64,000 nucleotides of DNA from Heptranchias perlo (lineage: Eukaryota): assembly GCF_035084215.1 (NCBI RefSeq), contig NW_027139442.1, positions 6,572,001 to 6,636,000 of the forward strand. The letters run 5' to 3'. The notes beneath the pieces are model-generated. The model saw only the letters and a program-made list of their open reading frames with translations, was not told the origin of the DNA and ran no database searches. Below, piece after piece: positions 27,290-34,479 of this stretch. The first letter of the stretch is position 1. Each line of letters opens with the position of its first letter. The translations under genes and the position numbers were made by a program.

Positions 27290-28430
27290 GACAAGATCAG
27301 GACCAATCTTATTAAATTCTTTGACTATGATGGAGCTGTATAAAACACTGGTTCGGCCACAGCTGGAGTACTGTGTGCAGTTCTGGTCGCAACACTGCAG
27401 GAAGGATGTGATCGCTTTGGAGAGGGTGCAGAGGAGATTCACCAGGATGTTACCAGGGCTGGAGCGCTTCAGCTATGAAGAGAGACTGGGAAGATTGGGT
27501 TTGTTTTCCTTGGAGCAGAGGAGGCTGAGGGGGGACATGATTGAGGTGTACAAAATTATGAGGGGCACAGATAGGATGGATACTAAGGAGCTTTTTCCCT
27601 TCGTTGAGGGTTCTATAACAAGGGGACATCGATCCAAGGTAAAAGGCGGGAGGTTTGGAGGGGATTTGAGAAAGAACTTTTTCACCGAGAGGGTGGTTGG
27701 AGTCTGGAACTCACTGCCTGAAAGGGTTGTGGAGGCAGGAACCCTCACAACATTCAAGAAGCATTTGGATGAGCACTTGAAATGCCATAGCATACAAGGC
27801 TACGGACCAAATGCTGGAATATGGGATTAGAGTAGACAGGGCTGATGGCCGGCGCGGAAACGATGGGCCGAAAGGCCTCTATCCGTGCTGTATAACTCTA
27901 TAACTCTATAACTCTATAACTAATTAACAGTAAGAGTAAATAAGGGTAACCTGGTAGATGTAATACATTTGGATTTTCAGATAGCCTTATATAAGGTACC
28001 GCATTGTAGAATCATGGCAAAGTTCAGTGTACGTGGAGTCAGGGGACAGGTAGCGGAATGGATAGCAAGCTGGCGACAAAACAGAAAACAGAGAATAGGG
28101 GTTACGGTTAGCTGCTTGGAGTGGCAAAAAGTGGGAAGTGGTTTAACACAGGGATCAGTGCTGGGACCACTGCTGTTCACAATTAACATTAACGATTTGG
28201 ATTCGGGAATCAGAAGTACAATTTCAAAATTTGACGATGATACCAAATTGGGGGTACAGTTAATACAAGGGAAGAATGTGTCAAATTGCAAGAGGACATT
28301 AATAAACTTGCAGAATGAAGAATAAGGAGCTCACATATTGTTTGGATGATAAGTCTAAACAGGATAGAGGAGCAATGGGATCGAGAGCTACAGATACACA
28401 AATTACTAAAAGTGGCAACTAAAAGTAGCT
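27290..28430 (+). mobile_element. Old CR1 RT fragment interrupted by a younger CR1
   Basis: TNLIKFFD-like motif at ~27300 continues at 27922 with VDVIHLDFQ...[10 protein letters not shown]...KFDDDTKL. Confidence 0.8.
27325..27921 (+). mobile_element. Young 5'-truncated CR1 with octamer tail
   Basis: Open ORF2 C-terminus LYKTLVRPQLEYCVQFW...GYGPNAGIWD, then 3'UTR and (CTATAACT)n tail at ~27891-27921. Confidence 0.93.
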
Positions 28431-29279
28431 TCGCCAGCGTTACCGTCTGACAACGACACTCGCTCTCAATCTGTGAAAAGATAATGACCATGAACTGGGA
28501 CTGAAGCCGAACACATCCCCGGCCCGGACATCTCCTTCTCCCTGTTTTATATCAGATAGTATCCCACCTTCATGTCCAGCACTGGAGAGAGAGAAACAGT
28601 ATCAGTCTTAGACTCCTATCAGTGTCCAAATCACGCACAATAGCAATAACCACCTTCATATTCAGCACCAGCGAGAGAGAGGGAGGTAGACACGGTGAGA
28701 GAGACAGAGAGCGGTGAGACACAGTGACAGACAGACGGAAACAGTATTAGTTCCAGACTGACCGTTTTATGCAGAAAGATCGCGTTGGAGAGACAGAAGA
28801 TGCAATCTAATCTCTCACTGATATTATACAAGGGACAGACACACTATTAATCCCACACTCAGGGACAGTGCAGAGTGACAAAAACAATGGGCCACATTGA
28901 ACCCTCTTTTGCCTGTTGTACCATCTGAAGTTTTGCAGCTCAAGGCTGTTCGATATTACTCTCAGTGACCGAGAATTTCACTCCGGTTAAATTAATCTGG
29001 GATTGTTGCTGTCAGATATTAATCCAACACGGTCCCAGCAAATACACCAACTCCCACTTTCCTCCCATGTTTCTCCAGGATTGGTTTGAGAAATCCTCCC
29101 TCCAGTTTCGGAGTCACACGTTTATTTATCAGTGGAGGGGCCAAAATTGAACTGGATCCTTTGGCTCATTCCACAGCCGCCCACTTTATCTATGAAAGGC
29201 TCTTTACCATCAAAATATATTGACAGGAACAGCAGGGATGGAAACATCTCGTTTAATAGTTAGAGATTGTAAAGTCAGT

Positions 29280-30949: not shown

Positions 30950-32785
30950 ATATACTCATAGTATGAGATTTAAAGATACAGTATCAATTCTATTAGCACA
31001 GACTGAGATACACATTACATACCGGTCCAAAAATGTTATAAAATAAAATTTAATAATGCAGTATCAATTCCTTTAGTGCAGACTGATCTACACATTATAT
31101 AGCAATTCAAAAATGTCACCATGTCAGTTTGAAAGATATATTATCATTCACAATATTACTCACAGAGATACAGATTTAATAGTAGTCCAAAAGCACACAA
31201 ATTATCTGATTAAAACCTCCAGCATCAAATCCTGAAGTTTATCCAAATTTACCAATTAAATAATGAGAAAAAATATTTAAACATTATGATATTAAAGTAC
31301 AGAATTGAATACCATAATGTAATCGGAGAAAATAATTAGATACAGATACAGAATGAATCTCACACTCAGATACAGTACAGAGACGCACAGATACAGAATG
31401 AATCCCACATTCACACACAGTACCAGAGATGACAGATACAGAATGAATCTCACTCACACACAGTACCACAAACTGACAGATACAGAATGAATGTCACAGT
31501 CACATTACTGCAGACTGAGTTACACATTGCATACCAGTCCAAAGATCTCAAAGTGTCAGATTGAAAGATACTGTATTAATTCCATTAGTGCAGACTGAGC
31601 TACATATTAGATATATTGGTAAATACTCATAGAGTATTATACTGAAATAAACATTATCAAAACCTTTGGTACAGACTGAGCTACACAATACATACTAGTC
31701 CAAAAACCTCATAAATGATCAGACTGGAAGATACAGCTTCAATATTATTAGCACTGCCTGACCTGTAGATTACATCCCAGACTGAAAATCCCATAAAATA
31801 TTAGACTGAAAGAGAGATTATCGATTCCGTGAGTGCAGACTGAGCCACACATTATATAGCAGTCCAAGAATCTCATAATGTATCAGACTCAAAGATACAA
31901 CATCAAATTCATTAGCACAGACTGAACTATATGTTACTCACCAGTCCAAAAATCTCATAGAGTATCAGATTGAATGATTCAATATCACTTCCATTATTGA
32001 AGACTGAGCTGCACATCAAATTCCAGTCCAAAAATCTCATACAATATCAGACTGATAGATACAGTATCAATTCCTTTAGTGCAGGATGAGCAACATATTA
32101 CATACCAGTCCAAAAATCTCATACAGTGTTAGACTCAGATACAGACTTAATCCCATTATTGCAGACTGATCTACACATTACATACCAGTCCATTAATTTC
32201 AACATAAACAGACTGAAAAGTACATTATCATTCACAATAAAGTTCAGAGATTAAGATGTAACACAACTCCAAAACTCACACCCGTTGTTTGATTAAAGAA
32301 AATCGAAAAGTGTATCCATATTAACAAATTAAATACTCGAAGAACTGTATATACTTTAAAGTATTAAAAATACATTTTCAAATTCCGATACTGTAATCTG
32401 AAATAAGAATAAAGAATGAATACAGACTTGCACATTTTCTCAGAGACCGAATTACAGAATGAATCCCACACTGAGATAAAATAGCAGAAAATGGCAGATA
32501 CATAATGTATCCAACACTCACAGATAGTACCAGAGACTGACAGGTGCTCGAGAAAGACAGACACAGAATTAATCCATCACTTATATACAGTACCTTCGAC
32601 TGACAGATGCAGAATATACCCTACGCTCACACTTAGTAGTGGAGACTGATAGATACAGAATGAATCCCAAACTCACGCACAGTACCAGAGTCAGACATGT
32701 AGAGAATAAACCCCACTCTCATGCACAGTCCCAGAGACAGGCAGATAGAGAATAAACCCCACTCCCGTACACAGTACCTGAGACT
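30950..32785. repeat. Compound 82-bp/46-bp satellite
   Basis: GACTGAGCTACACATTACATACCAGTCCAAAAATCTCA... and CAGAGACTGACAGATACAGAATGAATCCCACACTCA units. Confidence 0.88.
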
Positions 32786-34479
32786 GACCTCTACTGGACG
32801 TAAGCGAGAACTGTAAAAGAGGGGGACAAATTCACATCATTTGTCATGGTTACAGAAACAGGACAAAGCAATGTGAGGAAAGTCTCCGTCTGCAACTATT
32901 ACTCTCGTATTTTTGCATATTATGACAGTGAAAAATGAAGACAATTGATTCATAATAAGGTATTGTTTTACTCATTCGATAGTTGTGAATTTGCCCCATT
33001 ATATTTCAATGTACATTGCACAGTATTTCTCTCTGATTTCTCAGGACACGATTTACATTGCTCCTCCACCCCGTTTAGACTCTTCTTTTCCAAGCAGTAT
33101 ATGGCGTCCTTATTCCCCCAAGTGAAACGCACCACCTCACAACTTTCTATATTGAAATTCAATGGCCATTTACACGGCCGTTCTGTAAGTTTATTTTGTC
33201 ACAGTCTTCCTCAGTATCGACAATAACCCCTAAATTAATGAGAAGAATTTAACACAGCATTACAAATAGTGTTTGGTCTAACAAAATGTACTTGCAGCAC
33301 GTCTCAATTACTAGTCTTTCTAAATCTCACTCGTGCAATACAATGTGAAGAATGAGTTTATCTTCTGTCCCTCTCTCATCTGCAAACTTCAATGTCGCGG
33401 GGCTTGGGGACATCTACTGGAAAGAAGCAGAACCGCAACATTTCGGTCCAAATTGTTGAAACCGGATAATGTGCAGTGTGAGCGTGTTTGCAATTGGTGG
33501 CAGCAATAAAATCTGATTTTTCATACCTGCCCATTAAATTTTAGTGTTTGTTATTGAACAGTGAACAGAACCAGACAGTAAGGATATGGGGAGTTATAAA
33601 AAGAGCATCTATTGCAGGCATCAGGTGAGAAGTTTGAAGGATACATTTTAAATAGTGGCTGTGTTGTTTCGGTTTAATGGTTAGTCCCATGGGAGAGGGG
33701 ATTAGAAACATGACCTGTACAAAGGTCCCCGCCCCATCGGGTAGTCCCATTCATGGATCAGTGCAGGGGTTGGGTTGTGTCTGGATGTCATTAAATTGTT
33801 GTAAAACAGCCCAACACACCTGGTGTGCAGAAGCTGAGTGATGCAGTACTGTCGTGGCGTCAGACACTGACACTGTTTGTATCGCTGGTTTCCATTTGTG
33901 GATGTTACCGTGATTATTAACAGAGAGATTCAATTGATCACTTTTGTATTTTCTACTTCACCTGTTGTTAATTTACAAGCGATATTTTTCTTCCTACAGG
34001 CAAATCCCTGAAGGACCCAGAATCAGGATGATGTTTACTCCACCCGAGGCACAAGGAGCAGTGAAGCCAGCTCCTTCTCACACACAGTAGGTACATTATC
34101 ACTCACAAAGCACAGAGACACAGACAGGTCACCAGTCCCACAGTCTCAGACAGCAGAAATAGTCAGTCCCACACTGATCCCAATCCAACAGTCAAACAGA
34201 GCAGGAGAGACAGACGGAATTTCCATTTCACAACAACTCAGAACCGCTGACCGGCAGATAAATAATTCCCAGTCCAAAATCACACCCACTATCAGATTGA
34301 AAGGCACTGTGTCAATCTCACATTAGTTCAGCCTTAGCTACAAATTAAATCCCAGATGGACCTGACACATGGGACCGATTGATAGGTACAGAATGAATCA
34401 CAATAGTGTACCCCGAGATTCAAATTAAATACCAGCCCACAACTCACACACATTATGAGTTTAAAGATGCAGTATTCAT

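Follow-up and report, generated by a model that had tools for sequence, protein, structure and literature searches.

A multicopy, apparently spliced and likely non-coding transcription unit in the spacers upstream of histone H2B genes of the shark Heptranchias perlo

The stretch of DNA analysed here, 64 kb of contig NW_027139442.1 (C1275 in our numbering; positions 6,572,001-6,636,000) from the 3.25-Gb Heptranchias perlo assembly and called the window throughout, contains genes for the histones H4, H3, H2A and H2B, a zinc-finger gene, and pieces of long interspersed nuclear elements (LINEs) and Penelope-type elements. Self-comparison and alignment of the window further delimit five copies, A to E, of a cassette whose parts follow one another in identical order. 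In its complete form the cassette, hereafter the module, consists of a predicted CpG-island promoter with conserved factor motifs preceding several exons, two satellite arrays and a tail that represents the distal spacer of an H2B gene. Our analyses show that the module forms a standing component of H2B upstream spacers and, judging from joints in contigs of related organisms and from a processed fragment in the genome itself, that its family appears to be spliced at GT-AG borders using the predicted acceptor.

Copy A (4956-11760, minus strand) is complete and adjoins an H2B gene (4581-4955, minus). Copies B (28430-33518) and C (44218-50842), both on the plus strand, break off inside the second of the inverted CCAAT boxes, with copies D (33555-38726, plus) and E (50879-56143, plus), respectively, following directly. 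Copy D begins slightly 5' of the exon 1b acceptor; it comprises exons 1b and 2, both satellites, the tail, a 1.5-kb insert and a full H2B promoter, beyond which lies an H2B gene with its 3' stem-loop (38727-39175, plus). Copy E is of the same type, also shows an altered acceptor context, and is interrupted within its H2B promoter by a Penelope-type element in inverted arrangement (56143-59659). An earlier sequence-only reading of the window had drawn these copies, with their parts in this order, and its coordinates stand, including three exonic segments at exactly 9551-9763 (213 nucleotides), 30403-30628 (226) and 45893-46117 (225), each flanked in the three full copies by a pyrimidine tract with a TACAG acceptor and by an AG/GTGAGG donor; the replacement of GT by GA at this distal donor in copies D and E is likewise confirmed. 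That reading also had every copy pointing toward H2B upstream sequence, which is accurate for copies A and D, the only ones to reach an intact H2B promoter and gene, whereas B and C stop short and E is cut. Copy C contains a second, inverted version of the opening 109 bases of exon 2, with an exact exon border, 5' of the promoter (44788-44896); the same insertion characterizes one subfamily and was also seen at sampled loci L055, L058, L061, L066 and L069.

In copy B, all features of which lie on the plus strand unless no strand is given, the module opens with an upstream flank containing GA-rich runs (28430-29400), whose far end is the least conserved part, with 2.6 changes per site at 28900-29199 (changes per site are Fitch counts on a tree built from 89 copies with less than 25% gaps, thinned to 45 at less than 97% identity). 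An upstream promoter block at 29324-29442 is as constrained as exon 1 (0.61 changes per site), and is followed at 29468-29532 by two motifs flanking a GC box, which we take to be NRF1-type sites (0.45 and 0.20 changes per site). Exon 1 (29560-29866, its start approximate) contains what is presumably an ETS/YY1-type motif and a conserved core reaching 29709, and the observed/expected CpG ratio is 0.75-0.81 across 29400-29799. Alternative donors of exon 1 lie after 29791, after 29849 (in paralogs), after 29866 (B-type) and near 29705-29723 (in paralogs). The small exon 1b (29971-30043) has a GT donor in 40 of 45 copies and TT in copy B, and exon 2 (30403-30628) has an internal donor after 30488 besides the distal one after 30628; exon 1b and the internal donor had escaped the sequence-only reading. 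Arrays of 82-bp and 46-bp satellites with a linker (30913-32788), probably intronic, separate exon 2 from the tail (32790-33518), to which belong two CTCF-like sites (32784-32797 and 33407-33420), a polyA-like hexamer near 32953, a candidate acceptor AG at 33043-33044 and the inverted CCAAT boxes at 33489-33518.

Splicing of the module is supported by contigs from public sequencing runs of related organisms. Nine such runs share 6-21% of words with the module, none being recorded as RNA, a gap in the records that has no bearing on expression, and four (X1, X2, X5 and X6) were aligned to 28400-31000. A GT..AG joint connecting 29865 with 30402 is found in both X1 and X2, as are joints that link exon 1b with exon 2, and joints from exon 1 to 29969-29977 occur in X1, X2 and X5. 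Loose ends at 29705 (X5) and at 29717 and 29792 (X2) run on into the start of exon 2, and so does one at 30489 in X1, joining the internal donor to another exon 2. As this exon 2-exon 2 junction has no match in the genome, the X1 joint would reflect either a back-splice or splicing to a D-type copy in tandem; D-type read-through beyond the GA donor is present in X1 and X2. A second line of evidence comes from the shark genome, where the exon 1b-exon 2 junction is found once, on a 200-base fragment of contig C5 (61,416,506-61,416,708, minus strand, locus L171). This fragment joins 29827-29849, 29970-30043 and 30402-30522, thus lacking both introns at their exact borders, and its first junction matches the 29848-29970 joint of X2. 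Although short, its first piece scores better than 1000 of 1000 shuffles; the fragment is about 80-85% like the window copies, no polyA tail was seen, and the surrounding 10 kb contain no histone, tRNA (transfer RNA) or other module part. We infer that some member of the family was transcribed and spliced in the germline of this lineage.

Genome-wide searches indicate a large family. An exact 29-base promoter word has 536 matches in the genome and its reversed control none, so the cassette is not a product of chance. At least 415 promoters carry an NRF1-type motif and at least 179 bear a deletion of about 100 bases that removes both motifs, all these being exact-match lower bounds, and the promoter copies number about 600. 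The pattern for the start of H2B has 288 matches. Sampled loci were taken from among the matches listed (the first 100 places) and lean to low-numbered contigs. Satellite and tail precede H2B on the same strand at 37 of 40 H2B-anchored loci, those on C49 and C1275 having mostly been chosen for having no listed promoter match; the remaining three are lone or truncated H2B matches on C10, C29 and C43. On contig C49, the H2B pattern lies within 13 kb downstream and on the same strand for 21 of 52 promoters, as compared with 2.7 in random placements (maximum 10 in 2000 trials). Downstream sequence was further surveyed up to 9.3 kb for 103 promoters, those with less than 6 kb being excluded. From the 68 of NRF1 type, 29 reach H2B or its promoter, 23 the tail, two another histone gene and two a tRNA gene, and 12 no landmark; among all 103, 26 meet no landmark. 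Together with the splice joints and the processed fragment, the H2B-anchored loci uphold the proposal of the sequence-only reading that a multicopy spliced unit was co-amplified with the histone genes. One module subfamily on C49 points at an 81-base stub of H2B, its promoter and exons being kept (loci L071, L072, L074-L076, L078, L080, L082, L084 and L088).

The family is nevertheless not restricted to histone clusters, as had been proposed: the genome-wide promoter search assigns about 30% of the promoter copies to a subfamily residing in tRNA arrays, which lacks the tail and H2B. None of the 35 surveyed promoters with the deletion reaches a tail or H2B; 19 lead to tRNA genes, two to tandem broken H2A genes and 14 to no landmark. 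Upstream of copy B lie a tRNA-Gly(TCC) gene (26224-26295, minus), an upstream marker of the repeat unit occupying the same place in all eight upstream stretches fetched, and a diverged H2A copy without a stem-loop directly after its stop (26876-27262, plus). In all seven deleted-type copies checked, tRNA-Gly and a frameshifted version of this H2A occur upstream too. The sharing of tRNA-Gly and the broken H2A by both types suggests that part of a histone repeat gave rise to the tRNA-array subfamily; these copies would represent a passenger branch, in which tRNA-Gly, the broken H2A and the module were taken into another duplication and the NRF1 sites and the tail were lost. Histone and tRNA clusters co-occur in elasmobranchs (bioRxiv 10.1101/2025.06.08.657570, section 6). 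Two other views of a repeated unit of this kind were considered. A long terminal repeat or dispersed transposon was rejected, in agreement with the sequence-only reading, on account of the shared flanks and the absence of terminal repeats: no promoter-like repeat occurs at the tail, the best primer-site match to tRNAs of the fetched loci is 12 of 18, and copies share the flanking tRNA-Gly and H2A as in segmental duplication, although no separate search for target-site duplications was made. Nor does the module seem to be the 5' untranslated region of a zinc-finger gene, none being found within 9.3 kb downstream of the 103 sampled promoters, the 26 without a landmark included.

Constraint is distributed unevenly over the module. 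The core of exon 1 shows 0.59 changes per site as against 1.60 in the introns (p = 6e-11), and the NRF1-type motifs 0.20-0.45 as against 1.1-1.3 in adjacent sequence, while exons 1b and 2 together with the introns range over 1.4-1.8. The peak in exon 1 is seen again in a set of 14 copies that were reached by way of H2B and lack the search word (identity 0.97 at 29650-29699 versus 0.85-0.90 in introns). The acceptor AG of exon 2 is present in 45 of 45 copies and that of exon 1b in all 44 aligned, and the donors after 29791 and 30488 read GT in 44 of 45. The distal donor, the one described in the sequence-only reading, is not supported as the key donor and reads GT in 32 and GA in nine of the 45 copies. 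Nor does the GA donor mark promoter-less copies, in which that reading had noted it. Of the exons that have it, 12 are promoter-bearing and 18 tail-following (82 of 133 exon matches being readable at the donor and 51 not), and it thus marks a subfamily, independently of promoter loss.

The reading frame of exon 1 evolves neutrally, with 21 synonymous and 48 non-synonymous changes over 36 codons (expected synonymous share 0.28, p = 0.36), and all eight distinct indels shift the frame; no relative was found among proteins of 59-191 residues. The absence of a conserved protein, already suspected by the sequence-only reading, is thereby supported for this frame, and the module RNA is likely non-coding. 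There is no conserved fold either: folding z-scores of exon 1 (-0.2 to 0.9) are no better than those of shuffles, and the histone stem-loop is the sole Rfam match across 28400-39500 at E <= 1. A structured small RNA in exon 1 was rejected on these two results, and a hammerhead or small nucleolar RNA in the satellites or introns was dismissed for want of an Rfam match.

The 46-bp and 82-bp satellites are present in all five window copies; in some copies of the family the satellite stretch is shorter than 100 bases, in others it extends over tens of kb. Exact 46-base units number 3313 genome-wide and, among the matches listed, all lie on C2, C3 and C49; the exact 82-bp pattern, with seven matches, is too strict for mapping that satellite. 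On C49, a stretch of about 46 kb lying 5' of an H2B match (20,729,676-20,776,111) is spanned by exact 46-base units. An alignment of 96 tails, thinned to 43, shows moderate conservation of the candidate acceptor and the polyA-like hexamer. CTCF-like sites had been proposed for the module, and a 14-base consensus that we take to be that of CTCF finds 17 matches at up to two mismatches versus 8.2 by chance, many being paralogous copies of two sites which themselves deviate by one or two mismatches. Only the second of these sites is conserved (0.71 changes per site), lying inside a generally conserved H2B-distal block; the first is unconstrained (2.29, mean 1.87). The start of the tail (33058-33230) resembles what we presume to be an antisense fragment of a CR1-type LINE.

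Several other features of the window deserve a brief mention. An orphan exon 1b fragment that has lost its acceptor lies at 13640-14300, divided by two Penelope-type end pieces that form an inverted pair. At 17515-18609 (minus), a C2H2 zinc-finger array is spread over two frames of 180 and 176 residues, and minisatellites that bear no relation to the arrays of the module, with units of 22, 39 and 46 bases, occur at 15142-15574, 19481-20776 and 21383-21705. The H2A copies beside H2B at 3283-3669 (minus) and 39889-40277 (plus) both lack an ATG-started frame of at least 95 residues; the former has a leucine codon at its start, is otherwise intact and retains the stem-loop.

How can the module be interpreted? 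With moderate confidence, and reasoning from sequence data, we favour a multicopy spliced non-coding unit in which promoter activity would keep each histone repeat open. A housekeeping-type polymerase II promoter, marked by the NRF1-type sites, the GC box, the ETS/YY1-type motif and the CpG island, would initiate transcription near 29560-29620. Exon 1 would then be joined via variable donors to exons 1b and 2, the satellites would be spliced out or lie within a terminal exon, and tandem D/E-type copies could provide additional downstream exons. The most probable role would be the local upkeep of open, unmethylated chromatin at each histone repeat outside S phase, and such a local role of the promoter is favoured because constraint falls on the motifs, the start region and the acceptors, not on the later exons. 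Selection likely preserves promoter firing and splicing, not the RNA sequence or a protein. A number of observations weigh against this interpretation. The H2B genes that many copies point at are truncated or damaged, and 179 copies were amplified after loss of both NRF1-type sites, as a passenger would be too. Conservation of the splice sites is modest, given that five of 32 intronic AG and nine of 42 intronic GT controls change equally little. Gene conversion, or slower mutation where promoters are unmethylated, could account for the low change rates, and the Fitch counts presume a single tree and treat sites that are non-independent. As to splicing, the RNA nature of the runs is presumed, X1 and X2 come from one sample and hence represent two studies together with X5, X6 shows no splice joint, and use of the distal donor at 30628 does not appear among the joints listed, a further 160 loose ends lying outside that listing.

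The most serious rival is a neutral passenger, that is, an orphan promoter with exons long trapped beside H2B, which was amplified, transcribed and spliced without benefit. We deem this unlikely but worth keeping in mind: donor choice does vary between subfamilies, exons 1b and 2 change about as freely as the introns (1.4-1.7 versus 1.5-1.7 changes per site), the copies devoid of NRF1 sites amplified 179-fold, and satellite length varies between the extremes given above. Against it, the change rate falls locally, on the scale of a motif, at each of the two NRF1-type sites and drops 2.7-fold in exon 1, and homologous spliced forms exist in two other organisms. The presence of some 415 intact-promoter copies within histone arrays and of a conserved core in the transcribed part would also fit the idea, put forward by the sequence-only reading, that the RNA itself might serve as a scaffold at the histone locus body; contig depth peaks on exon 1 in X1, X2 and X5 (in X1 at up to 187,000, compared with about 100 upstream), these depths being non-quantitative and not used as expression levels. 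This idea nonetheless appears improbable from the sequences, since only one compensatory cell is found among 28 consensus pairs, the downstream exons are unconstrained, and an untranscribed-looking upstream block is conserved equally well; coilin bodies, moreover, are described as not being structured by nascent transcripts (PMC7151628).

The proximity of 29 of the 68 NRF1-type promoters to a same-strand H2B gene or promoter, with 23 more reaching the tail and its conserved acceptor-like site, raises the question of whether the module is an alternative upstream promoter for a spliced, polyadenylated, replication-independent H2B mRNA. There is little to recommend this explanation, considering that in copy A ten upstream ATGs separate the acceptor of the tail from the start of H2B, that no acceptor near the H2B start is common to the aligned copies, that AATAAA precedes the tail acceptor in seven of nine tails, and that no NRF1-deleted copy among 35 reaches H2B. 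Least credible of all is a small-protein gene starting from the ATG at 29606. This ATG stands in a good context in 89 of 97 copies, and the first 38 residues are identical in 47 of them; yet the synonymous share is neutral, changes are spread evenly over codon positions (22/21/26), indels are only of the frame-shifting kind, reading frames vary from two to 154 residues, and the search among proteins of 59-191 residues yielded no relative. Returning to the reading that we favour, an extended version of it, according to which sharks carry in almost all histone repeats a dedicated, always-on spliced non-coding gene that, through its transcription or through plentiful RNA of its first exon, would hold hundreds of histone units open and nucleate the histone locus body, making it an array-encoded vertebrate organiser, seems to us rather doubtful.

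One general class of multi-exon loci of long non-coding RNAs (lncRNAs) is constrained at promoters and splice sites rather than in sequence. The module is similar to them in its conserved promoter and first exon, its variable donors and its lack of a frame or fold, and differs in its high number of copies, some 600, in their bond to a tandem gene repeat and in having introns filled with satellites. Satellite 1 of newts sits between histone clusters, and the module, to which it was likened by the sequence-only reading, shares with it transcribable arrays between histone genes. The analogy is a loose one, as the satellites of the module lie upstream of H2B and behind spliced exons with a promoter of their own, whereas satellite transcription on newt lampbrush loops is described as starting at the promoters of upstream genes and reading through (PMC5615363; cf. 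PMC2114352). Histone arrays interspersed with ribosomal RNA (rRNA) genes, namely with 5S genes in Artemia and Mytilus and with an rRNA cistron in the boll weevil, likewise contain a non-histone transcription unit in each histone unit, according to a review of such arrays in whose main text the words 'shark' and 'noncoding' are absent (PMC13525598). Their guests, however, are rRNA genes of polymerase I or III, while the module is a spliced unit of polymerase II type that has no Rfam family and is found in tRNA arrays as well. The account of elasmobranch histone and tRNA clusters cited above has them proliferate together, in keeping with the presence of the module in both kinds of array, but its section 6 describes no intervening spliced unit. 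In Drosophila, GA repeats of the H3-H4 promoter seed the histone locus body (PMC5588930). Like the module with the GA-rich runs upstream of its promoter, this is an element within the repeat that is proposed to act in cis by opening chromatin; it is, however, the histone promoter itself, and the far upstream flank of the module is its least conserved part. The literature searched (listings and abstracts, bioRxiv supplements, which could hold annotations of shark non-coding RNAs, being outside this scope) contains no description of the module, and the processed fragment, the tRNA-array subfamily and the constraint map are new.

By what vertebrate histone clusters are marked for coordinated expression and for the formation of bodies is still an open question. 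The guests known from histone arrays are rRNA genes, and a spliced unit of polymerase II type, present with its constrained promoter in the majority of H2B spacers, would offer a concrete element to silence. The shark genome even provides a natural control, with about 415 intact NRF1-type copies beside histone genes and 179 copies without these sites beside tRNA genes. Should the module turn out to be just a passenger, it would still account for a large family of unannotated shark transcripts.

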